NCBI GenBank assembly: GCA_001822075.1
Contig: MHPK01000006.1
Span: 58,977-122,976 of the forward strand
Origin: Candidatus Staskawiczbacteria bacterium RIFOXYB1_FULL_38_37
GTDB taxonomy: Bacteria > Patescibacteriota > Minisyncoccia > Minisyncoccales > Staskawiczbacteraceae
Reading direction: 5' to 3'
Length of the DNA stretch: 64,000 bases
Part shown: one piece after another, positions 2,936-57,507 of the stretch
Layout of the letters: the number at the start of each line of letters is the position of its first letter
How positions within the stretch are numbered: the first letter of the stretch is position 1
The notes under the pieces: model-generated
Seen by the model: the letters and a program-made list of their open reading frames with translations, nothing else
The model's database searches: none
What the model was told of the DNA's origin: nothing
Program-made: the position numbers and the translations under genes

Positions 2936-3036
2936 AACAATTTTTAATTTTAAATTCTAAATTTTAAATGAAAAAACTTAATTTTTAATGTTTTAAACAT
3001 TTAGATATTTAGATTTGATTTAAAATTTAAAATTTG

Positions 3037-4287
3037 TTATTTAAAATTTTTATTTATCTCGTCTTCAATGTCCAACAACCTTTTATATTTTACCATTCTT
3101 TCTTCTTTTGCGGGAGAGCCTGATTTTATAAAATCAGCTCCTATGCCGACAGAAAAATCTGCAATAAAATCATCCATTGTTTCTCCGGACCTGTGGCTTA
3201 CAATTGTTTTCCAGCTAAATGATTTTGCAAGGTTTGAGGCTTCCACAGCTTCTGTAACACTGCCTATCTGGTTTGGCTTTATTATTACAGCATTGCAGGC
3301 TTTTTTATTATGCGCCTCTTTTATTTTTTCTGAATTAGTTGTTGTGAGGTCGTCTCCCGCCACAATAAATTCCCCACTCCTATGCGTCGGAGCGTAGGAG
3401 CGCGACAGCTTCATTATTTCTTCAAAACCCTGCCAATCGTTTTCTGCAAACGGGTCTTCTATAGAAATAATACAAAATCTCTCTGCTAAATCCTGATAAA
3501 ATTCTAAAAGTTCTGTCCTTGTCAATTCCTGGCCGTCTAAAGCATATTTGTTATCTTTATAAAATTCGGAAGCAGCGCAATCTAAAGCAATTTTTACCGG
3601 CTCATGGCTTATTGCATTTTGAAGTAAAAATAATGCCTGCTCTGTTTTAGAAATATCAGGCGCAAAACCCCCTTCATCCCCTAACTTTGCCGATTTATAA
3701 TTTTTTTCTACTAACTCTTTTAGGGCATTAAAAATTTTATTGCACAAAATCAGATTTTCTGCAAAAGTTTCTTTTTGCGGAACTGCCATAAATTCTTGAA
3801 TGGCCAATCCATTATCTGCGTGCCTGCCTCCATTTAAAATATTAAACATAGCTTTTGGAATTTTGAATTTGGAATTTGGAATTTTGAATCCAGAAAATTC
3901 TGCAATATGCTGGTATGGCGGAATTTTTTTTGCAGCAGCTCCTGCCCGGCACACAGCCATTGAAACTCCCAAAATTGCATTTGCTCCCAGCTTTGACTTA
4001 TTTTTCGTTCCATCCAACTCATTCATTATATTATCTATTTCTGCCTGATTTTGAGGGTTTAAGTTTTTTAATTTTGGCGCTATTATATTGTTTACGTTTA
4101 AAATGGCTGTTTTGACTCCTTTTCCGTCAGCATCCCGCAATTCCAGCGCCTCATTTTCACCGGTTGAAGCGCCAGAAGGAACTGAAGCTAAAAATACTCC
4201 TTTATCTGTTTCAAGTTCTACCTCAAGGGTAGGATTCCCTCTGGAATCTTTTATTCCTTTTGCGATTATGCTTTTTATCTTGCTCAT
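3037..4287 (-). CDS. eno: enolase
   Basis: MSKIKSIIAKGIKDSRGNPTLEVEL...SGASTGENEALELRD. Full-length enolase signature throughout. Confidence 0.95.
   Translation of the reverse strand: MSKIKSIIAKGIKDSRGNPTLEVELETDKGVFLASVPSGASTGENEALELRDADGKGVKTAILNVNNIIAPKLKNLNPQNQAEIDNIMNELDGTKNKSKLGANAILGVSMAVCRAGAAAKKIPPYQHIAEFSGFKIPNSKFKIPKAMFNILNGGRHADNGLAIQEFMAVPQKETFAENLILCNKIFNALKELVEKNYKSAKLGDEGGFAPDISKTEQALFLLQNAISHEPVKIALDCAASEFYKDNKYALDGQELTRTELLEFYQDLAERFCIISIEDPFAENDWQGFEEIMKLSRSYAPTHRSGEFIVAGDDLTTTNSEKIKEAHNKKACNAVIIKPNQIGSVTEAVEASNLAKSFSWKTIVSHRSGETMDDFIADFSVGIGADFIKSGSPAKEERMVKYKRLLDIEDEINKNFK
3855..3889. repeat. 5 x 7-nt tandem heptad (ttggaat/tttgaat; sense strand ATTC[AC]AA) inside eno, in frame (encodes FKIPNSKFKIPK)
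   Basis: Direct reading of ttggaattttgaatttggaatttggaattttgaat. The same heptad family recurs in gatA and in the rpsM-rpsK spacer. Confidence 0.8.
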
Positions 4288-6091: not shown

Positions 6092-6093
6092 TT

Positions 6094-6192
6094 GCGATAC
6101 TAATATACTAATTCATGCTAATTATACTAATGTGTGATACGAATTATATTTATTCGCATCATTAGTATGCATTCGCATATTGGCATCGCATT
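6094..6192. repeat. repeat family A copy 1 (~99 bp imperfect palindromic intergenic element)
   Basis: gcgatactaatatactaattcatgctaattatactaatgtgtgatacgaatt...ttcgcatcattagtatgcattcgcatattggcatcgcatta is nearly identical to 12756-12855. A 36-bp reverse-oriented fragment sits at 37902-37937. Confidence 0.85.
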
Positions 6193-7873
6193 ACTTGTTA
6201 AATTTTACTCTTCTCAAAAAAGCTGGAATTTCCCATTCTTTTTCCTGCGCCACTCTCTTTTTTTCTTCCTGTTCTTGCACTTTTTTGACGTCAAGCCCGC
6301 TCCTTCTTATGGCTTTTTTGGCGGGAGCTGAAAATTCTTCAACAATACTTAACCTTTTTTCACCAGCTGGCGACAAACCGGCTGAAACCGACGTATTGCC
6401 GAAAACAGGCGCTAAAATTTGGCCATCCTGTTTTTCTGTCGGCTTTTGGGAACTGCCGGATTTTTTTGCGCCGGGCTTTTTTGTTTTCTTTTGCTTGTTT
6501 TTCTTTTCAGCAATGCTAATTTTCTTTTTTGGCTTTTCGGGCTTTGCGGCTTCCGGCCCTGAAACTTCTTTTATAATTGGGCTCTCAAACTCGTCTTCTA
6601 TAAATTTGCCTCCGGCTGCCCTGCCTGTCATTAAAATTGTAGTTTTTATTTTATTTTTTAATTTATGGTTTTTTGAAATGCCAAAAATAATTTTGGCTGC
6701 GGGGTTTGACTCTGCAATATGCCTGCTGATTTTTTCAACTTCAAACATTGAAAGGGTGTCGGACCCTGATATATTAAACAGAATTTTTTCAGCCTGAAAT
6801 TTACTGCTCTGCAGCAAAGGATTTAACAAAACGTTTTTGCAAATTTTATCTGCCCTATCTTTGCCAGACTCTTCAATGGTGTTTAAAAAAGACATATTTC
6901 CCCTGCCCCTCAAAATCGTCCTTAAATCAGCAAAGTCTATATTTATAACTCCTGGATTATAAATCAAATTTATCAGGCTTTCCAAAGAGTCCGTAAGGCT
7001 TTTGTTTACAACAGAAAAAGCTTGGGTAATGGGAGTGTTGGCATTTATAATTTTAAATATCTTTTCGTTCGGTATTACCAATGAAACGTTTAAAAGCGGC
7101 TTTAATGCCCTTAATGCGTTTTGGGCTGTTTTATGCTTGCTTTTTCCTTCAAATTTAAAGGGCATTGTAAATATCCCAAAAGTTATTACTCCGCAATCGC
7201 GGGCAATTTCAGCAAAAACTTGCGCAGCTCCAGAACCTAATCCCCCGCCCAATGAAGCAATTAAAATTACAATATCCTGGCCTTTCAAAATGCTTTCTAC
7301 TTTTTCTTTTGCCTGCAAAGCTGCTTTTTTTCCGAGCTCTAAATTGGACCCAGTTCCCAGTCCGCGAGTTAAATTTTCTCCGAACCAAAAATATTTTAAT
7401 CCAGGCCTTTTCTTAAGAGCCCTGATGTCTGTGTCTGCCACAAGAAAGCTTGCTCTTGGCAAAGACCTTCCTATTTCAGAAACAATTGACCCTCCCCCGC
7501 CGCCAATTCCAACAACCTTAATTTTTGCCTTAAATAAAGATTCATCGCGAGAGTCGGCTAGTTTTGTCTGGGGTTGAACTATTTTTCGTTTTTCCGCAAT
7601 ACTCTTTTTAATTATTTTTTTCGTCTTTTTAGATTTTTTAACTTTTACCTGTTTTTTTACGGCTTTAGATACTTTTTTTACCCGGTTAAATAATTTCTTT
7701 TTGGAAGAAATTATCGTTTTGCGGTATTTAATCGGGTGAATCTTTTTTATGTTTTTTTTGGCCTTTGGTTTTTTAGCTAAAAACTTCCTGCTTTTTACAG
7801 GCTTTGTTTTTTTTACAGCTTTGCGATGTTTAACTGAATAAATTTTTAGTCTTGCCTTTTTTGGTTTGGCCAT
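6191..7873 (-). CDS. ftsZ: cell division protein FtsZ with ~125-aa Lys-rich N-terminal extension and long basic C-terminal linker
   Basis: VGIGGGGGS and GGGLGSGAAQVFAEIAR tubulin/FtsZ GTP-binding motifs, plus the C-terminal IPAFLRR peptide. The N-terminus is a histone-H1-like K-rich tail. Confidence 0.85.
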   Translation of the reverse strand: MAKPKKARLKIYSVKHRKAVKKTKPVKSRKFLAKKPKAKKNIKKIHPIKYRKTIISSKKKLFNRVKKVSKAVKKQVKVKKSKKTKKIIKKSIAEKRKIVQPQTKLADSRDESLFKAKIKVVGIGGGGGSIVSEIGRSLPRASFLVADTDIRALKKRPGLKYFWFGENLTRGLGTGSNLELGKKAALQAKEKVESILKGQDIVILIASLGGGLGSGAAQVFAEIARDCGVITFGIFTMPFKFEGKSKHKTAQNALRALKPLLNVSLVIPNEKIFKIINANTPITQAFSVVNKSLTDSLESLINLIYNPGVINIDFADLRTILRGRGNMSFLNTIEESGKDRADKICKNVLLNPLLQSSKFQAEKILFNISGSDTLSMFEVEKISRHIAESNPAAKIIFGISKNHKLKNKIKTTILMTGRAAGGKFIEDEFESPIIKEVSGPEAAKPEKPKKKISIAEKKNKQKKTKKPGAKKSGSSQKPTEKQDGQILAPVFGNTSVSAGLSPAGEKRLSIVEEFSAPAKKAIRRSGLDVKKVQEQEEKKRVAQEKEWEIPAFLRRVKFNK

Positions 7874-12749: not shown

Positions 12750-12755
12750 ATAGGT

Positions 12756-12855
12756 GCGATTCTAATATACTAATTCATGCTAATTATACTAATGTGTGAT
12801 GCGAATTTTATTTATTCGCATCATTAGTATGCATTCGCATATTGGCATCGCATTA
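12756..12855. repeat. repeat family A copy 2
   Basis: About 95% identical to 6094-6192. Confidence 0.85.
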
Positions 12856-13233
12856 ATTACAGTCTTGAGGGCAGCTTTCAGAAGTTTCAGGGCAAACGCA
12901 AGCTAAATTATTTTTAACTTTGCCGCAATCAGGATCTGTTTCCAAACAAATCCCATCTCCGCACTCATCTAAACATACAGAAAACCCCTGGCTGTCTAAA
13001 TAATTTATTTCGCCTTCAGCCTGCACTTCAACCTGAGGACTTGAATCCGTAATATTTTGGTCGTCAGTGTTCTGCTGATCTGTCTGAATTTCTGTGTTAG
13101 CGCCGCCAGTGGTGTTTTGCACTTCGATTCCTATAGTACCGATATATTTATAAAACAAAAATATGCCCAGTAAAATTACTATGAGAATTATAATGGAAGT
13201 TATTAAAATCTTCTTGTCCATTTTTGCAAACAT
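12853..13233 (-). CDS. small membrane-anchored Cys-rich protein
   Basis: N-terminal TM helix, then a Q/T/D-rich linker and a C-terminal CxxxC-rich module. Confidence 0.35.
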   Translation of the reverse strand: MFAKMDKKILITSIIILIVILLGIFLFYKYIGTIGIEVQNTTGGANTEIQTDQQNTDDQNITDSSPQVEVQAEGEINYLDSQGFSVCLDECGDGICLETDPDCGKVKNNLACVCPETSESCPQDCN

Positions 13234-17553: not shown

Positions 17554-17626
17554 AACATCGTCGAATTACGAATTTCTTGCGAATTTACGAATTCGTATAT
17601 CCGTATTAATTCGTTATTCGTTGATG
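17554..17626. repeat. repeat family C copy 1 (~73-bp MITE-like element with ~17-bp terminal inverted repeats and a central acgaattcgt palindrome) between ftsE and ftsX
   Basis: catcgtcgaattacgaatttcttgcgaatttacgaattcgtatatccgtattaattcgttattcgttgatg. Near-identical copies at 25318-25390 and 40387-40461, a split copy at 18315-18775 and a half copy at 38042-38078. Confidence 0.85.
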
Positions 17627-18314: not shown

Positions 18315-18775
18315 ACATCAGCGAATTACGAATTAATACGAATTTACGAATTTAAATTAACTATTCTTTTCGAAATAACTCCTTTATTTGTAAAATTTAT
18401 TAAAATGGCTAATTTGAGATTTTCGGTTTTCAAATAATTAATAACTTGATCTATATGTCTTTTCGAAAATATGTTTCCTTTTTTTAATTCTACAATTATA
18501 TTATCATCCACTAAAAAATCTAAATATTGTTTTCCAATTATCTTGCCCTTATATTTTAAATCACAAACTTTCTGTTCTAAAAAATTTAAGCCGCTCTGTT
18601 TAAAAGATTCTGCCAATGCTCTTTGATAATATTTCTCATGGTATCCGGGTCCTATCTCGTTATATACATCAAACGCACAGCCCATAATCGCATAACTTAT
18701 ATCAGGATATAAAATGTCTTTTTTTCTTATTTTTTTATATTCGTACATTCGTAAAAAATTCGCTATTCGTTGATG
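18315..18775. mobile_element. family C element containing a GxxExxY (PD-(D/E)XK) gene: candidate autonomous version of the 73-bp repeat
   Basis: Left half catcagcgaattacgaattaatacgaatttacgaattt (18315-18356) and right half attcgtacattcgtaaaaaattcgctattcgttgatg (18738-18775) flank ORF 18344..18748. Both its start and stop codons lie inside repeat sequence. Confidence 0.6.
18344..18748 (-). CDS. GxxExxY-family protein (PD-(D/E)XK nuclease-like, PDDEXK_3-type)
   Basis: GPGYHEKYYQRALAESF...DFLVDDNIIVELKKG...LKLAILINF. Paralog of 48329..48748. Confidence 0.65.
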   Translation of the reverse strand: MYEYKKIRKKDILYPDISYAIMGCAFDVYNEIGPGYHEKYYQRALAESFKQSGLNFLEQKVCDLKYKGKIIGKQYLDFLVDDNIIVELKKGNIFSKRHIDQVINYLKTENLKLAILINFTNKGVISKRIVNLNS

Positions 18776-19855
18776 TTTTTTAGTTCTGCTTGTATAAATT
18801 CTTCTAAGTGGCCGTCTAAAACGTTTTCTGTATCAGATGTTTCATATTGGGTTCTCAAATCTTTTACCATTTTATACGGGTGCAAAACATAAGACCTTAT
18901 TTGGTTGCCCCAGCTTGCTGAAATTGCCTCGCCCTTGATTTCTTTTAATTCTTTTTCTTTTTTTTCTTCTTCTAACTGGTAAAGTTTTGCCTGCAGTATT
19001 TTCATTGCCTTGTCTTTGTTTTTGCCTTGCAGTCTTTCTGCCTGCGAAGAAACAACAATGCCTGTTGGCATATGGGTTATTCTTATAGCAGACTCTGTTT
19101 TATTTACATACTGGCCCCCGGGGCCCGAAGCCCTAAATGTATCAATTTTCAAATCCTCTGGCTTTACCCCGTTAGAGACATCGTCTCTAACGGGGTTTAT
19201 TTCGGGCAATACGTTGACTAAAACAAAAGAAGTGTGGCGGAGCTTCTGGGCTGAAAAAGGAGAAATTCTGACTAATCTGTGCACGCCGGTTTCCTTTTTC
19301 AAAAATCCGTAGGCAAATTTTCCTTTTATCTCTAATGCCAAAGATTTAGTTCCAATTCTTCCTTCTGGCCCCCCTGCATCTCCAAATGACTGATGTAAAA
19401 TTTCTGTTTTGAATCCCTTTTTTTGGCAATATCTTTCGTACATTCGCAAGAGCATTGTTGCCCAATCTTGCGCATCCTGCCCCCCTGCCCCGGAGAATAT
19501 TTCCAGTATGGCGTTATTTTTATCGTATTTTCCTGAAAGAAAAATTTTAAACTCTTGCTTTTCTATTTCTTTCATCGCCTCGCCATAGCCTTTGGCGAAG
19601 GCGGGTTCATCATTTTCTTCCTGCAAAATTTCCAAATCCTCCTCAATCTTTTTTAAACTTTCTGTTTCTTGTTTTAATTCTGAAATTTCCTGCTGGACTT
19701 TACCAGCCTTTTCAGCATTTTGCCAAAAATCAGGCTTTAATGATTCTGCTTCAAGTTTGTTTAAATTTTTTTTCTTTTCTTTTACGTCAAAGGCGCTCCA
19801 CCAAATGATGGAGCCTTTTTTTTAATTCTTCAATTTTATTGATATTATCTGCCAT
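18763..19855 (-). CDS. prfB: peptide chain release factor 2, expressed via programmed +1 frameshift
   Basis: Frame 0 reads MADNINKIEELKKRLHHLVERL then TGA at the CTT TGA C site (19792-19786). The +1 frame continues DVKEKKKNLNKL... into the track ORF, which carries the SPF and GGQ motifs. Total 363 aa. Confidence 0.9.
19786..19792 (-). promoter_or_regulatory. RF2 autoregulatory +1 frameshift site CUU UGA C with upstream SD-like GGUGGAG
   Basis: Minus strand: ggtggagcgcctttgacg. This is the canonical prfB recoding site. Confidence 0.85.
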
Positions 19856-21151: not shown

Positions 21152-21250
21152 TTATAATGCAAATCTACAAATCTTATGCTAATGAATGCGAAAATGCGAA
21201 TTCGCATTTTTGTAGATTAGCATACCATTCGCATTATTTGCATTTTTGTA
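21152..21250. repeat. repeat family B, intact empty copy (~100-bp imperfect palindrome)
   Basis: ttataatgcaaatctacaaatcttatgctaatgaatgcgaaaatgcgaattcgcatttttgtagattagcataccattcgcattatttgcatttttgtaattataa. Its two halves reappear at 48276-48323 and 48725-48772 split by a GxxExxY gene. Confidence 0.85.
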
Positions 21251-25317: not shown

Positions 25318-25390
25318 GACATCGTCGAATTACGAATTTTGTACGAATTTACGAATTCGTATATTCGCAGCAAATTCGTTATTCGTTGAT
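25318..25390. repeat. repeat family C copy 3 (between proS start and rseP stop)
   Basis: gacatcgtcgaattacgaattttgtacgaatttacgaattcgtatattcgcagcaaattcgttattcgttgatg. Confidence 0.85.
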
Positions 25391-25398
25391 GATTACTA

Positions 25399-28188: not shown

Positions 28189-29910
28189 TTATGCTACTTC
28201 TTGCTGATAACATTTCTCGCAGTAAACAATTTCCGGCCTGTCGGGAGCGTAGCTTGTCTCGAATTTATTGGTACAGCCTGGCTTCATGCACTTTCTGTGC
28301 CAGAGCTTCTGTGGATTTTTCTTTTTAAATCTTTGCATGTGCCTGCAATTAAAACATAACTTTGGAACAGGCACGCTAAGCTTTCTGTATAATTGCAATT
28401 CCTCAGGAATAATCTTAAAGGCTAATGAACAGCCCTCGTTGCATTTACCGCTATGTTCACAACCAATTACTTCATTAAGAATGGTGTCTTGGGTTTCTTC
28501 GATAATATTGGGAACATTTTCTGAAGATAGAGTAACCTTATAATTCCTTTCTTCGGGCTCTCTCCAAAAATATCCTGCCCTTTCTGCCTGCTCTTTATTT
28601 TTGGGAGAATACTCTTGAGCAGCTGTTTCATTATAGGCAAATGGTGCCAGCGAAGCTGGAAAAAAACTGCCATATTTATATTCAATACCGCTTTTGTCTG
28701 TGTATGGCTGTGAATTCATGTGCTTAATTATCTTTGGCAAGAGCTCCTCGTATTCTTCTTTTGTGTATTGTTTGTTTAAGATGCAGTATTCGGCTTTTTT
28801 GATGCCTACACAACCAAAAAGATTATTAGAATTTTCACAGTTATCGCAATATTGGCAATCATAATCATTCCAAACACAAAAACTAAACTTAACGTTGTTG
28901 AGATTTATAGCGCTTACAATTTCATAAGAAAAAGATGATTTATCAACAACAACATACCCATCATGACAATTATTTGAATTATCTCCCCAAGTTAAATATT
29001 TAGAGTCTTCTATGGCGTTAGAACCATAGCATTCAAAACTGTTTTTGGAATTAAAAACATAATCACCAACCACATTTACATTCTTAATACCGTGCATGTA
29101 TTTGGCTATGTTTTCTCCAAAAAATTTATTAGCTTTTGCTAAAACGGCGTCCATCCCTTCACGGGTTTGCAAATTTGATTCTTCAATTTTTTTAAGATAC
29201 TCTTCTTTTGTGTAGGGCTTGTTAAAAATATAATAATTTTTGTTCTTTAAATTTACGCAACCCACGCAGTCTTGGCAATTTGAACAATTTTTAGAGGCCA
29301 CAACATTCCGACAATCAGTGCAGTCTTCAGAAAATTTTGTCATGTAACACTTTTTGCAACCAATACATTCATAGCAAAGCTCGCAATCGTTTGAGGTGTG
29401 GCAATCAATAGCGTTTCTTGAGTGCATAAGCGAATAAGAATAAAGGGAATCTTCATTGTTATCGCTCACAAAAATCATGTAGCAGTTTTTATCATATGCG
29501 GCTCCGTTAACATATTCGCTGTTTGTATTCTGAAAAATAAAAGAATACAAACGTGGCACCCGAAGCTGGAGTTCTCGAAACTGATCAAAAAACGGCCTAG
29601 AAAAATCGTATTCTCTTCCAAAACTCAACGTGTCCCATTTGTCGCCGTGATAGCATTCATTGCAATAAACTGCATACGGCGATTTTGGTGAATAAATAGA
29701 AATTATATTTTTTCTACAAAGGTCGCAGGTGCGGCGATAAAGAGTTCTTTCATTCCTCCATACAACCCGCCTTATAAAACGGCACTCCGGACACCATGTT
29801 GGCGCAGGCACTTTTATTTTTTCATAGAATGCAAAGTCGTCAGGCTCTATTACAAAGTCCTTTTTGCAATTTTGGCATATTTTTGTTTCAGAATTTTTAT
29901 TCATGATCAT
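28189..29910 (-). CDS. cysteine-rich multi-zinc-ribbon protein, paralog P1 (uncharacterised family)
   Basis: 573 aa with ~60 Cys. N-terminal CQNCKKDFVIEPDDFAFYEKIKVPAPTWCPECR, internal duplicated Cys-cluster modules each ending CILNKQYTKEEY, and C-terminal SYAPDRPEIVYCEKCYQQEVA. Paralogous to 31071..32840, 50111..51772, 55188..56840 and 57529..59244. Confidence 0.6.
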   Translation of the reverse strand: MIMNKNSETKICQNCKKDFVIEPDDFAFYEKIKVPAPTWCPECRFIRRVVWRNERTLYRRTCDLCRKNIISIYSPKSPYAVYCNECYHGDKWDTLSFGREYDFSRPFFDQFRELQLRVPRLYSFIFQNTNSEYVNGAAYDKNCYMIFVSDNNEDSLYSYSLMHSRNAIDCHTSNDCELCYECIGCKKCYMTKFSEDCTDCRNVVASKNCSNCQDCVGCVNLKNKNYYIFNKPYTKEEYLKKIEESNLQTREGMDAVLAKANKFFGENIAKYMHGIKNVNVVGDYVFNSKNSFECYGSNAIEDSKYLTWGDNSNNCHDGYVVVDKSSFSYEIVSAINLNNVKFSFCVWNDYDCQYCDNCENSNNLFGCVGIKKAEYCILNKQYTKEEYEELLPKIIKHMNSQPYTDKSGIEYKYGSFFPASLAPFAYNETAAQEYSPKNKEQAERAGYFWREPEERNYKVTLSSENVPNIIEETQDTILNEVIGCEHSGKCNEGCSLAFKIIPEELQLYRKLSVPVPKLCFNCRHMQRFKKKNPQKLWHRKCMKPGCTNKFETSYAPDRPEIVYCEKCYQQEVA

Positions 29911-31070: not shown

Positions 31071-32840
31071 CTACGCCACTTCCTTATTGTAGCAATTTTT
31101 ACAATAAACTATTTCAGGACGGTCTGGGGCATAGCTTGTCTCAAACTCATTCTGGCATTTTCCTTTTCCATGGGAATGATTTTCTTTATTGCACATGCAT
31201 TCCCGATGCCAAAGCCTAATAGGCGTACGCTGGGAAAGCCGGGCGAAGTGGCGACAGTTTGGGCACATTTTCGGAATCGGAATGCCCATACGTTTATAAA
31301 AATTCAAATCGCTTGTCGTAATTTTGAAAGCTTGCGTGCATTGGTGATTACATTTTCCATCGTGGGCACACCCGATTATTTCTTTTAAAATCTGATCGCT
31401 TACCTCTTCAATAGAATCTGGAATATTTTCTGCTTTTAAAGTAACAGTATAGCTCTTTACCTCTGGCTCAAGCCACCTATATCCCTGCTTTAGCGCTTCC
31501 TCTTTTGAAATTGGAAAAAGCTCCTGCGCAATGGTTTCGTTGTATGCAAACGCATGCATGTCCAGTGGGAAAGTTGAACCATAGCGATATTCTCTTCCCA
31601 AAGCGTCTTTATAAGGCATTGCATTCATGTGCTCAATAATTTTAGGAATTAGTGCTTCGTATTCTTCTTTTGTATACTGCTTATTCAAAATACAATACTG
31701 TTTTTTGCGCAAACCGACGCAGCCGAATAAATCGGACGAACTCATGCAGTTCACGCAATATTGCGCCCGAACTAACTGGTCCCAGCATTCGTTTGAGAAA
31801 AACACTTGCGAGCATTGCCTGCCAATGCTTGAACATTCATAAATCAATTCTGAATTCTTGCCCCAATATGTATAGTCCATCACATCTTTTGCATCCATGA
31901 TTCCAAAAAGATACTTGCCGTCTTCCACTCTTTCGCAATTAAAACCAACCTGCACATTCTTGCATTCATCAAGCCAGTTACCAGAAATATTTGTACTGTG
32001 ATTTTCAACAACAGCCGGCATTATCTGCTTTTTAACAAATTCCAAAAACCTGCTTTGCATGGCCTCAATCTCGCCACGTTTTTTTGGCCACAATTTTTCA
32101 ATCTGTTTCTTATATTCTTCTTTTGTAAATTGCTCGTTGAAAATGCAATATGATTTATTGCGAAGATTCACACAGCCAAAGCAGTCATTGCAATTCAAAC
32201 AATGAAACAAAAAAGAAGAGCTCACACAACTGCCGCATTCCTGCGAATACATCAAGCGACTGCATCTGTAACAATCAATACACTCAAAACACAATTCAGA
32301 CGAATGGATATTGTAATTATCCATGCTGTCTTTTGAATCCCATACCGAAGTGCCATAAGAACAATTTTCATTATTTGCGGCAGCAAAAATAAGATAGCAA
32401 TCTTTATTGTCGCTTACCCTGTTAGTGTAATCGCTGTTTACATTTATTCCTTGCTGGATAATTCCAAGCCGGGGCACCTTTAAAAACAAATCTTTAAACT
32501 GCTGGAAAAATGGTTTTGAAAAATTATAATCTTTTGCATAAGACTGGGTATCCCATTTGTCTGACCACCAACAAGAATGGCAATAAGCAGTGTAGGGGCT
32601 ATCGGGATGATAAATTAAAATTTTATCTTGACCGCACAAATTGCATTTTCTTTTATAAAGGGCCCTCTCGCCCCTCCATGCCAAACGCTTAATAAGCCGG
32701 CATTCCGGGCACCAGGTTGGCGGGGGGACTTTCATTTTTTCGTAGAACGCAAAATCATCAGGCTCGATGGTAAACTCTTTTTTACAATTCTGGCATGCCC
32801 GCACTGAGCTTGCCGAAGTGTTATTGGTTTCGCTTTGCAT
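31071..32840 (-). CDS. cysteine-rich multi-zinc-ribbon protein, paralog P2
   Basis: 589 aa. CQNCKKEFTIEPDDFAFYEKMKVPPPTWCPECR at the N-terminus and SYAPDRPEIVYCKNCYNKEVA at the C-terminus. Confidence 0.6.
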   Translation of the reverse strand: MQSETNNTSASSVRACQNCKKEFTIEPDDFAFYEKMKVPPPTWCPECRLIKRLAWRGERALYKRKCNLCGQDKILIYHPDSPYTAYCHSCWWSDKWDTQSYAKDYNFSKPFFQQFKDLFLKVPRLGIIQQGINVNSDYTNRVSDNKDCYLIFAAANNENCSYGTSVWDSKDSMDNYNIHSSELCFECIDCYRCSRLMYSQECGSCVSSSFLFHCLNCNDCFGCVNLRNKSYCIFNEQFTKEEYKKQIEKLWPKKRGEIEAMQSRFLEFVKKQIMPAVVENHSTNISGNWLDECKNVQVGFNCERVEDGKYLFGIMDAKDVMDYTYWGKNSELIYECSSIGRQCSQVFFSNECWDQLVRAQYCVNCMSSSDLFGCVGLRKKQYCILNKQYTKEEYEALIPKIIEHMNAMPYKDALGREYRYGSTFPLDMHAFAYNETIAQELFPISKEEALKQGYRWLEPEVKSYTVTLKAENIPDSIEEVSDQILKEIIGCAHDGKCNHQCTQAFKITTSDLNFYKRMGIPIPKMCPNCRHFARLSQRTPIRLWHRECMCNKENHSHGKGKCQNEFETSYAPDRPEIVYCKNCYNKEVA

Positions 32841-37209: not shown

Positions 37210-37902
37210 TTACGAAGTTTGAGTTTCTTGTTCTGCAACTTTTTTTTTGAATTCTTCCCAGTTTAAAGCTTCCCCATTCGCCATTTTGCATATGTCTTTA
37301 AACTGGCAATAACTGCATTGCCAGTTTCTGGGATAATCTGCAAGCCTGGCTGGAACCTCATTCTTTTCTACCTGGGCTTTCAAAGAATTAAATTTATCTA
37401 AAAGAGAATTGCATAGCTGTTCATCGTAATCCACAAAAAATTCTTTCATATCCTGCTGGTCTTTGTCTATGTAAAGCAGTATGCCTTTTTTAATGTTAAA
37501 AAAATGCAGATAAAGCTGTATCTGATAAACATTCTCCTCTTTGGGAGCTGCCATTCTTTTAAAAATCATGCTGTTTATTGATTTTATATCCAGCACATAA
37601 TTTTCATTTCCAATGCATAAAATTGCGTCCGCCCTGCCTGAAATTATTTCGCTCGTCGGAATTGGAATCTCTGTTACAACTCCTAATCTCAAGCGGTATA
37701 AAATGTTAAAAATGCTTCTGTGCATGTTTTCTCCACGTTCAAAAATGCGCATTATTCTTGCGTCCATTGGCTCGCGCGGAGCATTTTTAAACTTAAAAAA
37801 AACAGCGCGCGGGCATTTACCGGCATCTGTAATATAAAACCTCGTCTGGTCTTTATTTTTTTGATTATCCAAATAAAACTGGTCTATAAGCTCTTTTAAC
37901 AT
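37210..37902 (-). CDS. Cas4-like / RecB-family PD-(D/E)XK nuclease with 4-Cys (Fe-S-type) cluster, stand-alone
   Basis: N-terminal Cys (GKCPRA), motif II-III GRADAI...VLDIKS, QhxxY (YQIQLYLHF) and C-terminal CSYCQFKDIC. No CRISPR array or cas1 nearby. Confidence 0.6.
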   Translation of the reverse strand: MLKELIDQFYLDNQKNKDQTRFYITDAGKCPRAVFFKFKNAPREPMDARIMRIFERGENMHRSIFNILYRLRLGVVTEIPIPTSEIISGRADAILCIGNENYVLDIKSINSMIFKRMAAPKEENVYQIQLYLHFFNIKKGILLYIDKDQQDMKEFFVDYDEQLCNSLLDKFNSLKAQVEKNEVPARLADYPRNWQCSYCQFKDICKMANGEALNWEEFKKKVAEQETQTS

Positions 37903-37937
37903 AATGCGATGCCAATATGCGAATGCATACTAATGAT
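37902..37937. repeat. family A repeat fragment (right arm, reverse orientation) abutting the Cas4-like start codon
   Basis: taatgcgatgccaatatgcgaatgcatactaatgat is the reverse complement of the 3' 36 bp of family A. Confidence 0.75.
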
Positions 37938-38012
37938 ACTAATAATATTTAAATGATAACAATTATAAAAAATATATGCAAATTCCGACCGCTCAAACAC
38001 GTCTGAGCGATT

Positions 38013-38039: not shown

Positions 38040-38041
38040 AA

Positions 38042-38078
38042 ATTCGTACATTCGTAACAGATTCGTAATTCGTTGATG
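38042..38078. repeat. family C repeat, right half only, directly after rpsI stop
   Basis: attcgtacattcgtaacagattcgtaattcgttgatg matches the right arm of the split copy at 18738-18775. Confidence 0.75.
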
Positions 38079-40386: not shown

Positions 40387-40461
40387 AAAATCATCGAATT
40401 ACGAATTTTTTACGAATTTACGAATTCGTATATTCGTAGCAGATCCGTTATTCGTTGATGG
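40387..40461. repeat. repeat family C copy 4 (between rpoA start and rpsD stop)
   Basis: aaaatcatcgaattacgaattttttacgaatttacgaattcgtatattcgtagcagatccgttattcgttgatg. Confidence 0.85.
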
Positions 40462-41552: not shown

Positions 41553-41571
41553 AGCTTTTTACTTCGTAAAA

Positions 41572-41663
41572 GAAATTCGAAATTCGAATATCGAAATTCG
41601 AAACGTGTTTTGAATTTTGAATTTTAGATTTGTTTCGGATTTCGGATTTCGTGCTTCGGATTT
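41572..41663. repeat. unusually long rpsM-rpsK spacer made of short tandem repeats (gaaattc x4, ttttgaa x2, tttcggattt x3)
   Basis: gaaattcgaaattcgaatatcgaaattcgaaacg...ttttgaattttgaatttt...tttcggatttcggatttcgtgcttcggattt. Same heptad family as the in-gene arrays in eno and gatA. Confidence 0.8.
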
Positions 41664-41668
41664 TCTAA

Positions 41669-42137: not shown

Positions 42138-42254
42138 TTAACCTTGTCTTTGTTTGTGCTTTGGATTTTTTTTACATACAACATAAATACGACCTCCTCT
42201 TCTGACGATTTTGCAATCTTTGCACATTTTTTTAATTGCCGGCCTTACTTTCAT
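42138..42254 (-). CDS. rpmJ: 50S ribosomal protein L36 (38 aa; below track cutoff)
   Basis: Manual translation gives [38 protein letters not shown] with the C-x2-C-x12-C-x4-H zinc ribbon. Confidence 0.8.
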
Positions 42255-42303
42255 TGTATAAATAAAAAAAATCTAAAAAATTTTAGGTTTTTATATTTTT
42301 ATT

Positions 42304-43887: not shown

Positions 43888-43956
43888 AATCCTGTAAATT
43901 TTTAATTTTAAATTTTTAATTTTAATTCAATTTTCAATAACTAAATGTTTAAATTT

Positions 43957-43974
43957 AAAAACCCGGCGGGTTTT
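43957..43974 (-). terminator. intrinsic terminator after alaS
   Basis: aaaacccggcgggtttt hairpin flanked by A/T runs, 30 nt 3' of the alaS stop. Confidence 0.55.
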
Positions 43975-44001
43975 AATCATTGGAAATTGTAAATTGGTAA
44001 T

Positions 44002-45750: not shown

Positions 45751-45959
45751 AAAAATAGAATTATCCTTTGCTTAAAGAAATCCCTGCCTGCCGGCAGGCA
45801 GGTAAATACTTTGTCCTCAATTCTGACGACTTCATGATTTTATAATTTTACATCAAAATTTATTTTCTTGCAACACTCAAAAAACGCCGTTTTCGGCGTG
45901 TTTTAAAATTAGGATATTAAAAATTGATTTAAAATTTAAAATTTAAAATTGAAAATTCA

Positions 45960-48277: not shown

Positions 48278-48772
48278 AATGCAAATCTACAAATCTTATG
48301 CTAATGAATGCGAAAATGCGAATATCGGTTATTCTTTTGCTAAAGAATTTAATATCCTTTTAGGAACTATATATTTTTTTCTAAAATTGACTAAAATTCC
48401 TAGTTTTTTGTTCAAAGCAGTTAAATATCTTTTCACCTGATAATAATCTTCAGTGATGAGTAGTTTTTTAGCTTTTACTTCTAATATTATTTTATCTTCA
48501 ATTAAAAAATCGACTTTATTTCTACCTTCTGCCTCGCCTTCAAAAGCCGGAGGTAAAATTTTTTCTCTTCTGTAATTTATATTTATTTTTTTAAGATAAC
48601 TTTCTATAAGGTCGCAGTATTGTTTTTCATTAAGAAATTGACCTAACTCATTATGAACTGCGAATAGAATCCCATTAATTTTGTAAGATAAATCTGAATA
48701 AATTACTTTTTCCATAAAAATCACATTCGCATTTTTGTAGATTAGCATACCATTCGCCGTATTTGCATTTTA
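48276..48772. mobile_element. family B element split by a GxxExxY gene: candidate autonomous copy (empty copy at 21152-21250)
   Basis: Left half 48276-48323 (ataatgcaaatctacaaatcttatgctaatgaatgcgaaaatgcgaat) and right half 48725-48772 (attcgcatttttgtagattagcataccattcgccgtatttgcatttta) flank ORF 48329..48748. At 21152-21250 the same two halves are contiguous. Confidence 0.65.
48329..48748 (-). CDS. GxxExxY-family protein (PD-(D/E)XK nuclease-like), paralog of 18344..18748
   Basis: GILFAVHNELGQFLNEKQYCDLIESYL...VDFLIEDKIILEVKAKK...KLGILVNF. Confidence 0.65.
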   Translation of the reverse strand: MLIYKNANVIFMEKVIYSDLSYKINGILFAVHNELGQFLNEKQYCDLIESYLKKININYRREKILPPAFEGEAEGRNKVDFLIEDKIILEVKAKKLLITEDYYQVKRYLTALNKKLGILVNFRKKYIVPKRILNSLAKE

Positions 48773-50110: not shown

Positions 50111-51772
50111 CTAAGCCACTTCACGCTGGTAGCATTCCATACAGGCTATTTTTTGAAATCCAAGTTCTGGACTATAATAATGTTCAATTTCTTTATTGCA
50201 ATGTGCGCAAATTCCGCACTGCAACTCAACCATATGGCTAAAGGGTTTGTAGTGCTCTTGTGTGCGCCAGTCAAAATGCCTGTTTGGAAGCGGAATACCG
50301 TGCTCTTTATAAAATGCCAGCTCGTCTTTTGTAATATTATAACTTAATTTGGTTTCAGGGCATAAAATACGCTGTTTTGTAATTTCATCTTTTACATCAT
50401 CTATACTATCTGGCAAAGTGTCGGCTGTTATAATGTTTTCGTAATGCGGCTTTGAAGCCTCTTCCCACTTGGCGCCAAACTGAAGGGCTTCTGTTTTTGT
50501 CATGGGAAACTGCATGTGAGCCAAAGAAAGGTTGTATCCGGAATATGCGGCTGAGAGCGGCCAAAGCCTTCCCCACTCTCCATTTTTTTTCATATCGCTC
50601 TTAATTTTTTCAACCAAACTCTCATATTCTTCTTTTGTATATTGTTTGTTCAAAACACAATATTTCTTTTTTCGTAAACCCACACAACCAAAACAATATT
50701 CAGATTCCTCGCAAAAGTCTAAATAGCTACTATAACGACAATTAGTAGTGTAAAGATTGCATAGGTTGCCGTACGCGAACTGGTCCGACGACCCAAAAGC
50801 GCACTTCTCGCTTTTAAGAGCGCCCACCGAATCAATGATTTCTTTATTCTGAAAACCTCTAAAAACGTAATGGCAATTTTCCGATTCTTCAAGAAAATAA
50901 CATTGATGGCAATTTTTATCATTCGTGATAAGGTTTCCTGTGGAATTCACCGTCTGAACATTATAATTCTGTCGGTGCACAGCATCCTGTTGGATATGCT
51001 TCCAAAATTCTTTTTTTAATTTTTCAACAGATGCTCGCGATTTTAGGTTATATTCTTCAAGCTTTTTCTCGTATTCTTCTTTGGAATATGGCTGGTTTAA
51101 AATATGGTATTTTTTATTTTTTAGATTCCAGCACATAAAACAGTTTTGGCAGTTTCGGCAGTCATATAAAAATAAGCTGTCAATGCAGTCGCGGGAATTA
51201 AAAGAATATTTTAGGTTGTAACTTTTGAAACAAAACAGGCAATCGTATGAACGCTCCAGGTCAAAAGAATAAGTTACATCAATACATTTTTTACAATTTG
51301 CTAAACGATATCCATAGATGATTGACTCAATGCGAAAAGCGGAGCGCGTAAGGTGTGCGTCTTTTGATTCCCACAAATCATCGGCCCAATCACAATTAGT
51401 ATTTTTTGTGCCGACTTGGTGAGGGTGCGGAACTTTCGATTGCAGCTCAACAAGCTGGTCAATAAATAAACGCGAGGCATCATAGTCTTTTCCATATGTG
51501 AGCGGGTCCCAGGCATCGGATACAAATTCGTTCCTTTCATAAATGGGGAAAGGAACTGATTCTGGCAGAACCGTTATAATTGTTTTGCCGCTCAAGGCCG
51601 ATTTGCCAATTCTAAATCTCCCAAACACCCAAAAAGCCAAAAGATATTTAAAGCGGCAACTGGGGCACATGGTGGGCATGGGCAAATCCATCTTTTTGTA
51701 AAGGGAAATATCATCTGAATAGATGACAAAATCTTGATTACACTTTTGGCATTGTTTGGTTTCGGTATGCAT
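50111..51772 (-). CDS. cysteine-rich multi-zinc-ribbon protein, paralog P3 (most divergent)
   Basis: 553 aa. N-terminus CQKCNQDFVIYSDD...CPSCR, internal CVLNKQYTKEEYE module, C-terminus IACMECYQREVA. Confidence 0.55.
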   Translation of the reverse strand: MHTETKQCQKCNQDFVIYSDDISLYKKMDLPMPTMCPSCRFKYLLAFWVFGRFRIGKSALSGKTIITVLPESVPFPIYERNEFVSDAWDPLTYGKDYDASRLFIDQLVELQSKVPHPHQVGTKNTNCDWADDLWESKDAHLTRSAFRIESIIYGYRLANCKKCIDVTYSFDLERSYDCLFCFKSYNLKYSFNSRDCIDSLFLYDCRNCQNCFMCWNLKNKKYHILNQPYSKEEYEKKLEEYNLKSRASVEKLKKEFWKHIQQDAVHRQNYNVQTVNSTGNLITNDKNCHQCYFLEESENCHYVFRGFQNKEIIDSVGALKSEKCAFGSSDQFAYGNLCNLYTTNCRYSSYLDFCEESEYCFGCVGLRKKKYCVLNKQYTKEEYESLVEKIKSDMKKNGEWGRLWPLSAAYSGYNLSLAHMQFPMTKTEALQFGAKWEEASKPHYENIITADTLPDSIDDVKDEITKQRILCPETKLSYNITKDELAFYKEHGIPLPNRHFDWRTQEHYKPFSHMVELQCGICAHCNKEIEHYYSPELGFQKIACMECYQREVA

Positions 51773-55187: not shown

Positions 55188-56840
55188 TTACGCTACTTCT
55201 TGATTGTAGCAACTTTTGCATAAAATATCTTTTACTTCCTCTTCAGGATAGTGGGTTTGAAATTCAGCGCCGCATTTAGAGCAGGTTCTCTTGTACAGCC
55301 TCAACTGCTTAACCCAACGATTAAACTTTTCTTGAATACGGCAGAATGGACATTTTCTTGGCAAAGGAAAATTCATATTTCTCAAAAAATTCAACTCTGC
55401 TTTTATAATTTTAAATCCCTTTTTGCAATTTTGACATTCTATTACTTCGTTCAAAATCTCGTCAGAAGCATCTTTTATATGGTCTGGCAAATCGCTGGGT
55501 TTTTTTGTAATTTGATATTGCGCGATTTTTATTTCTGTTCGGTTTTGTGGATAAAAACTCTGAGCAATTGTGTCATTATATGCAAACGGACTTAAATTTA
55601 TCGGAAAAAATTCTCCATACTCTTTTCTTTCCTTCATCTGTTCAATAATTTTTGCCTTTAAGGTATTATAATCTTCTTCTGAATAACGCTTGTTAAGAAT
55701 GCAATAACTTCCACTTTTAATTGACATACAACCAAAAAGATGAGAGGTGCGACCATAACAAGAAACAGAATATTCAATATCGCGCGCTCCATGTCCGCCA
55801 CTAAGGCAGAACTTTAATTCAGATGCCCCCTCGCCGCACGAACAACATTCATAACACAAAGAAACATTGTTGCCCCAAGCTGTAAAATCATATGTGTCTT
55901 TAATCGGCGAAAGATAAGCCAAAGAAATATATTTTGAATTCTCAGCTCCCTCTACCTCAAAACATTGCTGGCAATTTTTGGATTGAAAAACATAACTGCC
56001 CAGGCAATTAACCGAAAAATCGTCATACGCGGGGCGGGGCGGAAATTTTTTCCAGTGTTCCTCTGCTCGCCTTTTAATTTCCTGATATGTTGCGTATGAA
56101 CCCAAATCCCATTTTTTAATTTCCTCAAAATAAGTTTCTTTGGTATAAGGTTTATTAAAAATATAATATTTTTTGTTTCTTAAATTCGCGGAAGCAAAAC
56201 AGTCTTGGCAATTATCTGAATCCCTTAGAAAAAAACAATTCAGCGACTCTGTAACGTTTCCCTTTGTGCCAGCGCATCGGTTGCATCTGAACAAATTAGT
56301 TGCGTCAAAACAAAAATCTGACTGCATTGCCATTGAAACATCAAGCAAAGATTTGTTCTTTAAAAGATAATGGCCATACATGCAGTCTTCGTTGAAGTCG
56401 CCAAAAAAAATCAAATAACAATTTTTAAGATGTCCAACTTGATTAGTGTAGTCTGAATTCTCTAATGTAGCATAATCAGCATCAAGACCCAGCTGGGGTA
56501 CCTGATGCCAAAACTCATTAAATTGGTCAAAAAATGGCCTGGAAAAATCATAATCTCGGCCATACGAAAACGGGTCCCAATCGTCAGACCACCAACATTT
56601 TGCGCAGTACACTTTATATGGTGAATCCGCAGAATGAGCTAAAATCAGTTCCTTCTGACAAAAATCACACTTGCGCTTGTAAAGTTTAAACATATTATAA
56701 AACGCCATGCGTCTTTGCCTCCTGCACTCTGGGCAAAAAGTCGGCGGCGGAACTTTTATCTTTTCGTAGAATGCAAAATCATCGGCTTCAATTACAAAGT
56801 CCTTTTTGCAGTTCTGGCATTGTTTGGTTTCGGAATTCAT
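55188..56840 (-). CDS. cysteine-rich multi-zinc-ribbon protein, paralog P4
   Basis: 550 aa. CQNCKKDFVIEADDFAFYEKIKVPPPTFCPECR at the N-terminus and CKSCYNQEVA at the C-terminus. Confidence 0.6.
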   Translation of the reverse strand: MNSETKQCQNCKKDFVIEADDFAFYEKIKVPPPTFCPECRRQRRMAFYNMFKLYKRKCDFCQKELILAHSADSPYKVYCAKCWWSDDWDPFSYGRDYDFSRPFFDQFNEFWHQVPQLGLDADYATLENSDYTNQVGHLKNCYLIFFGDFNEDCMYGHYLLKNKSLLDVSMAMQSDFCFDATNLFRCNRCAGTKGNVTESLNCFFLRDSDNCQDCFASANLRNKKYYIFNKPYTKETYFEEIKKWDLGSYATYQEIKRRAEEHWKKFPPRPAYDDFSVNCLGSYVFQSKNCQQCFEVEGAENSKYISLAYLSPIKDTYDFTAWGNNVSLCYECCSCGEGASELKFCLSGGHGARDIEYSVSCYGRTSHLFGCMSIKSGSYCILNKRYSEEDYNTLKAKIIEQMKERKEYGEFFPINLSPFAYNDTIAQSFYPQNRTEIKIAQYQITKKPSDLPDHIKDASDEILNEVIECQNCKKGFKIIKAELNFLRNMNFPLPRKCPFCRIQEKFNRWVKQLRLYKRTCSKCGAEFQTHYPEEEVKDILCKSCYNQEVA

Positions 56841-56876: not shown

Positions 56877-56910
56877 AGTTAGTTTTTTGGCTCGAGCCAA
56901 AAAACTAACT
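56877..56910. terminator. perfect 34-bp palindrome, family E hairpin
   Basis: agttagttttttggctcgagccaaaaaactaact. Confidence 0.55.
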
Positions 56911-57444
56911 CAACTTATATCTTAGTTTGATTTTTTCTTGATTATCAATAAAATTAAGCAATCCAAACCGGATATATTTTTCCAAATTAAACAGTCTGGC
57001 AAAATCATCAATTTCTTTCTTGCAATCATACGGATGCAGAAATAGGCTTTCCTGCAACTCATAAAATCCTCCCATTTTTAATCTGTATCGCAATGCATTT
57101 CTGTCTTTTCTATGAGAATTAGGAATATCAAAAGCCACCATTCTCCATTTTCCATCCCATTTCCCTTTTTTATGACCCAATCGCCTAAATCTAAAATTTA
57201 TAACTCGCAGAATTCCTTTTTCAGTAAGAGAAACTAAAATTGATCCTTCGTAATTTTTCTTTTTTTCCAATAGCTTTTGTTTTTTGAGATCTGTCACTGC
57301 AGAAATTAACTGTTTTGATGTAAAACCATGAATGCCTTTTATTGCGTCGTTTAGTAAAATAAGCCGAGCGTCTCCATGGCGACCAACTTTTTCGCTGCTT
57401 GCGTAATATATTCTCCATAATATTTCTTCAACAATTTTATTCAT
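56905..57444 (-). CDS. PaaX-like protein: N-terminal winged-helix + C-terminal Cas2/VapD-like domain
   Basis: WRMVAFDIPNSHRKDRNALRYRLKMGGFYELQESLFLHPYD resembles the Cas2-type beta-alpha core. N-terminal HTH-like region. Confidence 0.4.
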   Translation of the reverse strand: MNKIVEEILWRIYYASSEKVGRHGDARLILLNDAIKGIHGFTSKQLISAVTDLKKQKLLEKKKNYEGSILVSLTEKGILRVINFRFRRLGHKKGKWDGKWRMVAFDIPNSHRKDRNALRYRLKMGGFYELQESLFLHPYDCKKEIDDFARLFNLEKYIRFGLLNFIDNQEKIKLRYKLS

Positions 57445-57477
57445 GCTTCCATTATATAAAACAGATATGAAATAGTA

Positions 57478-57507
57478 AACTTTTTGGCTCGAGCCAAAAA
57501 ACTAACC
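57478..57507. terminator. family E palindromic hairpin (second copy flanking the PaaX-like gene)
   Basis: aaactttttggctcgagccaaaaaactaacc. Confidence 0.55.

Follow-up and report, generated by a model that had tools for sequence, protein, structure and literature searches.

What connects a small gene for a nuclease-like protein with the repeat in which it is embedded, when the same repeat also occurs without the gene elsewhere in the genome? This question is raised by a locus in a 64,000-nucleotide (nt) stretch of DNA, here referred to as the window, from Candidatus Staskawiczbacteria bacterium RIFOXYB1_FULL_38_37, a member of the Patescibacteria or candidate phyla radiation (CPR). The window has a GC content of 37%, nearly all of its genes on the minus strand, and very short spacers. 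The gene encodes a GxxExxY (PDDEXK_3) protein, and the repeat, referred to as family C, is a palindrome. A preliminary description had read the locus as a small transposon whose gene-less copies are its miniature inverted-repeat transposable elements (MITEs). Here, we describe that GxxExxY genes lie between inverted arms of short repeated units in several phyla and that the unit sequence goes with the gene. We give about even chances to the view that the feature is a selfish, promoter-less, hairpin-bounded nuclease-gene cassette with gene-less derivatives.

A GxxExxY gene splits a palindrome at its dyad

The gene order around the filled copy, on the minus strand, is prfB, the GxxExxY open reading frame (ORF), ftsE, and ftsX; all genes, arms, and palindromes of the two repeat families described below are likewise on the minus strand. 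The ORF (positions 18344 to 18748; 405 nt, 134 amino acids), recognized by a profile match, conserved residues, and a structure model, lies between the upstream (5') arm of a split family C palindrome (18739 to 18775; CATCAACGAATAGCGAATTTTTTACGAATGTACGAAT) and its downstream (3') arm (18316 to 18351; ATTCGTAAATTCGTATTAATTCGTAATTCGCTGATG), so that the whole element consists of 460 nt with 36-nt arms around one ORF. The upstream arm encodes the final four codons and the TAG stop of prfB and also contains the ATG of the GxxExxY gene (18748 to 18746) together with codons 2 to 4 (MYEY overall), while the downstream arm holds the last two codons and the TAA stop (NS*) and terminates 4 nt before the ftsE ATG. 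Start and stop codons of the ORF both fall within the innermost arm units, and a base-by-base reading thus confirms that they are built from repeat sequence, as first described. The same reading places the insertion point at the dyad of the palindrome: intact copies read TACGAAT/TCGTA (the slash marks the dyad), and the filled copy reads TACGAAT-insert-ATTCGTA. More than 20 independent assemblies, GCA_003518025.1 and GCA_001820555.1 among them, have the same protein and gene order, and in the predicted minimum-free-energy fold of a 491-nt transcript, the arms pair across a 400-nt loop.

The arm motif ATTCGTTATTCGTTGATG, with up to 3 mismatches allowed, occurs 9 times in the window versus 0.05 times expected by chance, and the 9 matches resolve into three intact 73-nt palindromes, one solo arm, and the one split copy. 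The intact gene-less palindromes fill the ftsE/ftsX junction (17554 to 17626; absent from the closest relative, L215), lie between an M50 protease gene and proS (25318 to 25391; seen in the motif scan and the fold), and lie between rpsD and rpoA (40387 to 40460; absent from relative L223, with an ACTAAT-type variant at this place in L234). The solo arm is of the upstream type (38041 to 38078), is followed by a GC hairpin terminator, and is 89% identical to the corresponding arm of the filled copy; it retains the ATG-bearing unit of the latter, ACGAATGTACGAAT, and is probably the remnant of another filled copy. The empty copies and the half copy had been noted before, but the repeat had been taken for terminal inverted repeats (TIRs) of about 17 bp around a small central palindrome. 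It is in fact one near-perfect 73-nt palindrome with arms of about 36 nt, and each arm comprises four CGAAT units arranged as an outer pair, a variable spacer of 5 to 6 nt, and an inner pair. Intact copies fold stably on both strands (-23 to -30 kcal/mol; z-scores of -3.2 to -5.4). Copies without the gene are more numerous than filled ones, and the three intact copies resemble one another more closely than they do the arms around the gene, a pattern expected of MITE-like derivatives. Gene-less palindromes fall into two classes, loop-less and with loops of 12 to 15 nt, and we have no explanation for why both exist.

The GxxExxY protein is a predicted PD-(D/E)XK nuclease

Profile searches matched the first ORF to PF13366 (PDDEXK_3; E value of 4e-33, 114.7 bits against a cut-off of 22) and to TIGR04256 (GxxExxY; E value of 3e-33, 114.5 bits against a cut-off of 35). 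The protein has the G-x-x-E-x-x-Y motif and the catalytic D...E-x-K of PD-(D/E)XK enzymes on a restriction-endonuclease-like fold, which places it in the family; D77, E87, and K89 are invariant among 26 homologs, as are G35, E38, and Y41. An AlphaFold2 model (pLDDT of 88) has the PD-(D/E)XK fold, with matches to Cas4, restriction endonucleases, and Hjc. A metal site of the D-E-K type is characteristic of DNases, and the conserved residues and the modeled fold suggest that the protein may act as a nuclease. Sequence searches returned no solved or characterized relative, a defense-system scan (PADLOC) returned a marginal Cas4b match alone (E value of 0.008), and there was no match in a phage collection or in viral contigs. 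Full-text literature searches by family names yielded no function assigned to PF13366/TIGR04256 proteins.

A second paralog lies within a palindrome of a different family

The annotation of a 99.96%-identical strain revealed a second PDDEXK_3 gene in the window, which the preliminary description had missed. This GxxExxY ORF (48329 to 48748; PF13366, E value of 4e-24, 85.6 bits), whose true start is likely the ATG at 48715, encodes a protein 36% identical to the first and likewise splits a palindrome, in this case one of family B with TGC[G/A/T]AAT units. Its upstream arm (48725 to 48770) and downstream arm (48278 to 48323), the latter abutted by the ATG of the next gene, are identical at 44/46 and 45/45 nt, respectively, to a gene-less counterpart, an intact 90-nt palindrome centered on GCGAAT/TCGC (21156 to 21245). 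Family B is thus also split at its dyad, and the dyads of families C and B both read CGAATTCG. Two paralogs, two arm families, and one geometry make coincidence untenable, and since each paralog lies within a different arm family, each gene goes with its own arms. Arms of the family B type (TGCAAAT/TGCGAAT units) were also seen around a GC-rich, noncoding loop of about 120 nt in a Saccharibacteria metagenome-assembled genome (MAG; L057, 1340 to 1550), so this second family is not confined to one genome or CPR class.

The exact splitting of both palindromes brings to mind a homing-type process, in which the palindromes are spread or kept by other means, a dimeric nuclease recognizes and cleaves the dyad of an intact copy (CGA-AT-TCG), and the break receives the gene from a filled copy through homology of the arms; intact palindromes would then be targets and not progeny. 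PD-(D/E)XK homodimers typically cut palindromic sites, and both paralogs interrupt the same CGAATTCG dyad. In filled copies, the units on either side of the insert are both complete (CGAAT...ATTCG); in intact copies, the two innermost units have the central AT in common. The difference resembles the outcome of a 2-nt staggered cut that was filled in. The near identity of the filled and intact family B arms would indicate a recent conversion, and loop-less palindromes centered on CGAATTCG recur in many genomes. However, intact palindromes with near-identical arms persist beside an intact nuclease gene in the same genome, and no locus was seen in a population both as a filled and as an intact-palindrome allele. 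Homing also leaves unexplained the arrival of gene-less palindromes at new junctions, the conservation of the whole 36-nt arm described below, and the many palindromes with 12- to 15-nt loops. We regard this explanation as unlikely.

Genes and arms are associated across phyla

The association was examined from the DNA side and from the protein side. A scan with the arm pattern against one genome per species yielded at least 120 loci in Patescibacteria (many classes), Bacteroidota, Omnitrophota, Anaerolineae, Gammaproteobacteria MAGs, and a Pacearchaeota MAG. Among the matches listed, there were 145 arms, 64 in compact gene-less palindromes and about 68 solo; the only arm pairs 450 to 550 nt apart, in L029 (Chryseobacterium, frameshifted) and L051, both enclose a GxxExxY gene, and in L077, a GxxExxY gene adjoins an arm. 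Conversely, 80 metagenome loci were retrieved by protein alone (47 to 67% identity to the window protein). Flank complementarity exceeded that of every shuffle in 52 of the 72 nonredundant loci, and several more were recognizable by eye. GxxExxY genes are therefore preferentially arm-flanked, as had been anticipated: both genes in the window, at least 52 of the 72 metagenome loci, and every gene-filled copy among the pattern matches listed have arms.

In nearly all of the loci retrieved by protein, the upstream arm enters the ATG and the downstream arm overlaps or trails the stop codon. Neighboring genes are co-directional with the GxxExxY gene (38:2 upstream and 41:2 downstream), and no more than about 20 nt separate the arms from the upstream stop and the downstream start, as a result of insertion into very short spacers. 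A gene with no promoter of its own that relies on read-through transcription would show such an orientation bias. Only 8 of the 62 window genes have a Shine-Dalgarno motif, and hence its absence after the arms is uninformative.

The arm consensus is the same on both sides, ATCAACGAAT(A/T)ACGAAT-N5-6-TACGAAT(A/T)TACGAAT, and the mean arm match score was 43 for cognate arms, 32 for noncognate arms, and 20 for shuffled arms. Where the unit differs (ACAAAT, ACTAAT, ACGAAA, or ACGGAT), it is switched jointly in every unit of both arms. Between elements, arm identity is 72 to 73%, a value somewhat inflated by the loose sequence anchor with which the arm set was picked, versus a flank baseline of 51%, while four-fold synonymous sites of the same pairs are saturated (37%). 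Such values speak for selection on the primary sequence beyond the needs of pairing alone. The greater conservation of the outer box than of the inner one was not used, as the arms had been anchored on the outer box and the comparison is biased. In L151 and L152, two near-identical contigs, the upstream arms differ in length by a single AAACGAAT unit, indicating that unit arrays expand and contract like tandem repeats.

Repeats of other sequence also bound more distant members of the family (26 to 36% identical), which are encoded on plasmids of cultured isolates: inverted repeats of CAGAGGA units in Bacteroides finegoldii and another inverted repeat in Treponema saccharophilum. Repeat-bounded genes in cultured isolates rule out a MAG artifact. 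The existence of a solo arm in the window and a data set consisting mostly of MAGs might otherwise have suggested two half repeats that happen to lie beside an unrelated ORF, or a misassembled metagenome bin. This reading is refuted by the excess of the motif in the window, the identical locus in more than 20 independent assemblies, the same architecture in at least 52 loci and on complete plasmids, and the second, independent case in the window, and we give it practically no weight.

A further explanation assigns the palindromes to the host, as structural elements at operon junctions (repetitive extragenic palindromic [REP]-like RNase III sites, mRNA stabilizers, or aids to translational coupling), with the GxxExxY gene being an unrelated small gene, for instance one for repair or defense, that tolerates or uses the loop and has no part in their spread. 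In keeping with this, unit-built palindromes of many families are found at about 30% of the operon junctions in the window, related genomes have other families at the same junctions, the folds are stable, and the arms abut stop and start codons. However, it is the encoded protein, and not the host, that the unit sequence follows across phyla and between paralogs, which disfavors a purely host-side role. In addition, the primary sequence is conserved past the needs of pairing, arm mismatches include 67 G.U and 68 A.C pairs and hence no G.U excess, neither strand folds better than the other, the elements are missing from the same junctions in relatives, and no Rfam family was matched. Taking both sides together, we consider a host-side role quite improbable.

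The elements are gains relative to close relatives

Orthologous junctions were located via FtsE and RpoA relatives. In L215 (FtsE 96% identical) and L223 (RpoA 92% identical), both from sample SRR27458548, the spacers are plain and measure 3 nt at prfB/ftsE, 14 nt at ftsE/ftsX, and 26 nt at rpsD/rpoA. Occupancy thus varies between relatives, as previously supposed, and since gene and palindromes are missing from all three junctions in the closest relative, the elements are gains. In L213, L214, L216, and L217 (FtsE 84 to 87% identical), the genes overlap or are tightly spaced. Other families of unit palindromes occupy the same junctions in L211 and L212 (FtsE 89 to 90%), and ACTAAT-type palindromes lie at rpsD/rpoA and rpsK/rpsD in L234 (RpoA 82%); we have no explanation for why different families occupy the same junctions. 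No intact family C palindrome was seen at prfB/ftsE in the relatives compared, the states there being no element, another element, and filled. Outside the cassette, contigs with a GxxExxY gene have 1.6 extra ACGAAT arms per 10 kb, and the window has 1.7; there were none in 47 kb of relatives' loci without a cassette.

Differences among the ten contigs with an identical protein were traced to a run of N's (L001) and a rearrangement or chimera (L003) and do not represent empty sites. One widespread cassette, P0061, always directly precedes prgI and virB4/traC-like genes for type IV secretion (L224 to L233, 2501 to 2902), a cluster that could provide a route for horizontal transfer.

The same architecture carries PF05635 genes

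A pattern-free scan for ORFs with complementary flanks recovered 45 GxxExxY genes and, in addition, four intact genes of Pfam family PF05635 (L111, 5248 to 5607; L133, 4308 to 4679; L168, 3320 to 3685; L188, 3748 to 4095). All four lie in a protein-coding context, not in rRNA, between inverted arms of A/T-only units. Furthermore, in L211 (FtsE 90% identical), a frameshifted PF05635 gene is found between inverted arms of TTAGCTTA units at the prfB/ftsE junction (3095 to 3500), and hence the same junction has a different cargo and different arms in L211 and in the window.

PF05635 (S23p) is the cargo of the ORF-bearing intervening sequences (IVSs) of 23S rRNA in Coxiella burnetii and Leptospira, the closest known kind of element, which the preliminary description had not considered. 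The Coxiella IVS, of unexplained origin, measures 428 to 444 nt, has a 28-bp terminal stem, and is cleaved by RNase III (PMC4990558). With 460 nt and 36-nt arms, the window element falls within the IVS form, in which about 0.4 to 0.75 kb with complementary termini forms a stem around one ORF. Similar to an rRNA IVS of about 0.45 kb, it has one small ORF looping out of a long stem of terminal repeats, a sense insertion in a host transcript, a sporadic distribution, and an unexplained origin and mobility (PMC4990558). Unlike these IVSs, its cargo is a PF13366 PD-(D/E)XK protein and not PF05635, its site is the stop/start junction of protein-coding operons (prfB, ftsE) and not an rRNA helix, its arms are arrays of a conserved 6-nt unit common to several phyla, and gene-less palindromes are dispersed in the same genome.

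The likeness suggests that the cassette might act mainly at the RNA level, with either host RNase III or GxxExxY, as an RNA endonuclease, excising it from the operon transcript at the stem and with spread as DNA being rare and incidental. Size and stem match those of the Coxiella IVS (PMC4990558), PF05635 cassettes have the same architecture and occur even at the same junction in L211, and the sense-orientation bias is strong. On the other hand, the arms show no G.U excess, the D-E-K signature is one of DNases, and the arms are conserved in primary sequence, yet RNase III requires no such conservation; nor would the spread of gene-less copies be explained. We judge an exclusively RNA-level element to be very unlikely. 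Known RNA families gave no lead either: at the Rfam gathering threshold, the whole window contains tRNAs alone, while the search of four palindrome loci at the E-value threshold added no more than spurious microRNA hairpins and a truncated, subthreshold group II intron match in L034, outside the palindromes.

A model for the cassette and the points that weigh against it

In the model that we favor, the GxxExxY gene lies in the loop between the arms of a long inverted repeat, with four short units (of the ACGAAT type here) per arm. The arms would serve as cis-acting ends whose unit arrays are recognized by the nuclease encoded between them, the nuclease would cut the DNA there, and the hairpin-bounded unit would then be copied or moved into stop/start junctions of co-directional operons. 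Gene-less copies, that is, intact palindromes, looped palindromes, and solo arms, would retain the ends and be propagated in trans, and for this reason would come to exceed the gene-bearing copy in number. Once transcribed with the operon, the arms would pair into a long stem, as in an rRNA IVS, and join the upstream stop to the downstream start, which would make the insertion tolerable. It is conceivable, though in our estimate somewhat short of an even bet, that GxxExxY proteins, a very large PD-(D/E)XK family, are more generally the mobilizing enzymes of an unrecognized class of prokaryotic mobile elements, hairpin-bounded and with unit-array ends read by the nuclease, which have gene-less palindromes as nonautonomous progeny and colonize operon stop/start junctions in Patescibacteria, Bacteroidota, and other phyla; the rRNA IVSs (PF05635) and many intergenic unit palindromes would be sister forms.

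Several observations weigh against this model. No target-site duplication, which had been expected from the transposon reading, was found at the outer ends of the arms, and no direct repeat is common to the sequences on either side of the four family C copies. At all three junctions compared, the spacer of the relative is replaced and not interrupted, for which we have no explanation. No identical gene-bearing copy was found in two contexts, P0061 having one context in all 24 contigs. Nor was occupancy polymorphic among near-identical strains: the 99.96%-identical L222 has no indel over 20.7 kb. A distant GxxExxY gene on a plasmid of Fusobacteria bacterium ZRK30 (L219, 1100 to 1700) is flanked by a direct repeat of about 50 nt (containing CAGATTTAATCCGTGTACCTAT) and not by an inverted one, and some GxxExxY genes have a downstream arm alone. 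The lack of a G.U excess gives no positive sign of selection on an RNA stem. PF05635 is a four-helix bundle and no obvious nuclease, and its cassettes show that the architecture does not require a nuclease in cis. Finally, we know of no strand-transfer chemistry for a stand-alone PD-(D/E)XK nuclease.

As to the earlier idea of a transposon with MITE progeny, part of it stands. Similar to autonomous TIR transposons and their MITEs (e.g., Correia elements, Rickettsia palindromic elements, and cyanobacterial Nezha), short noncoding copies share inverted ends with a rarer coding copy, gene-less copies are in the majority, and presence or absence varies at orthologous sites between relatives (L213 to L217 and L223), here at the species level only. 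What does not agree with a TIR transposon, besides the missing target-site duplication and the replaced spacer, is that the sole ORF encodes a 134-amino-acid PD-(D/E)XK protein and not a DDE, HUH, serine, or tyrosine transposase, that each type has a single gene-bearing copy (the two window genes, 36% identical, each have their own arms), that the position at stop/start junctions and the sense orientation are strict, and that PF05635 is carried as well.

Comparison with other repeat-associated genes

In systems of REPs and REP-associated tyrosine transposases (RAYTs), one gene is flanked by inverted short palindromic repeats that are otherwise dispersed without a gene in intergenic regions, and particular genes and repeats vary together from genome to genome. 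RAYTs belong to the HUH/Y1 transposases and are relatives of the TnpA of IS200/IS605. The GxxExxY gene is likewise flanked by inverted copies of a dispersed intergenic repeat, as in REPtrons. Unlike a RAYT, the enzyme is of the PD-(D/E)XK type, Pfam and NCBIfam yielding PDDEXK_3/GxxExxY alone and no HUH Y1 match, and its gene lies at the exact dyad of one repeat and not between separate REP copies. Free-standing homing endonuclease genes, including the PD-(D/E)XK enzyme I-Ssp6803I, offer another parallel in that a small nuclease-fold gene splits a sequence that is intact elsewhere and the intact site is palindromic, as would be expected for a homodimeric PD-(D/E)XK enzyme. Unlike in homing, however, the putative target is a dispersed multicopy repeat in place of a conserved host gene, the gene is found together with intact targets in one genome, and no filled/intact allelic pair was found at one locus among the junctions compared. 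The short tandemly repeated repetitive (STRR) heptamers of heterocystous cyanobacteria are intergenic arrays of 7-nt units, often inverted, whose function is unknown. They resemble the arrays described here in these respects and, to our knowledge, have not been linked to GxxExxY or PF05635 genes.

Full-text literature searches with the family names, the arm and Bacteroides unit sequences, and CPR palindromes returned no description of an association of this gene with palindromes, in agreement with the earlier statement that GxxExxY is not established as the mobilizing enzyme of a repeat family. What is new here is thus the enzyme family and the host context for IVS-like or MITE-like elements, which could form a class of their own if the nuclease proves to be the mobilizing enzyme. 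PF13366/TIGR04256 proteins are widespread, with relatives in many phyla, and a conserved DNA partner provides a direct biochemical hypothesis about their substrate. The association also suggests a source for the unit palindromes that are so dense, at about a third of the operon junctions, in this CPR genome. If the nuclease reads the short units, it would represent a compact (about 130 amino acids) module for sequence-specific DNA recognition with natural variants for ACGAAT, ACAAAT, ACTAAT, ACGAAA, TGCGAAT, and CAGAGGA. The likeness to PF05635 cassettes ties in the question of how rRNA IVSs originate and move, a question that dates back more than 25 years (PMC4990558).

Other palindromes and minor features of the window

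Further palindromes built from repeated 7- to 8-nt units are found at operon junctions at positions 2936 to 3051, 6093 to 6196, 12755 to 12858, 37902 to 37945, 41553 to 41668, 42200 to 42303, 43888 to 44001, and 45751 to 45959. Unit types at such junctions include AAATTTA, GCGAAT/GCAT, CGAAAT, and CATGTTC. Judging by their sequence, the A/T-only palindromes, which are similar to the arms around PF05635 genes elsewhere, may be gene-less forms of those cassettes.

The window also contains five paralogous genes for proteins of about 550 to 590 amino acids (repeat families D1 to D6; 28189 to 29910, 31071 to 32840, 50111 to 51772, 55188 to 56840, and 57529 to 59244). The conserved noncoding motif TCTCATGTCACGTCTACTGCCAAATGACAGTGAATG lies close by, on the upstream or the downstream side, in three of them, and the segment between such a paralog and proS has apparently been lost from L003. 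A gene with a PaaX_M/Cas2-like domain (ORF 56905 to 57444) is bracketed by the GC-centered palindrome GTTAGTTTTTTGGCTCGAGCCAAAAAACTAAC (56878 to 56910 and 57474 to 57506). Finally, prfB was called in two pieces (19636 to 19830), and its 290-amino-acid ORF is preceded by CTTTGAC, which resembles the standard programmed +1 frameshift site of release factor 2.

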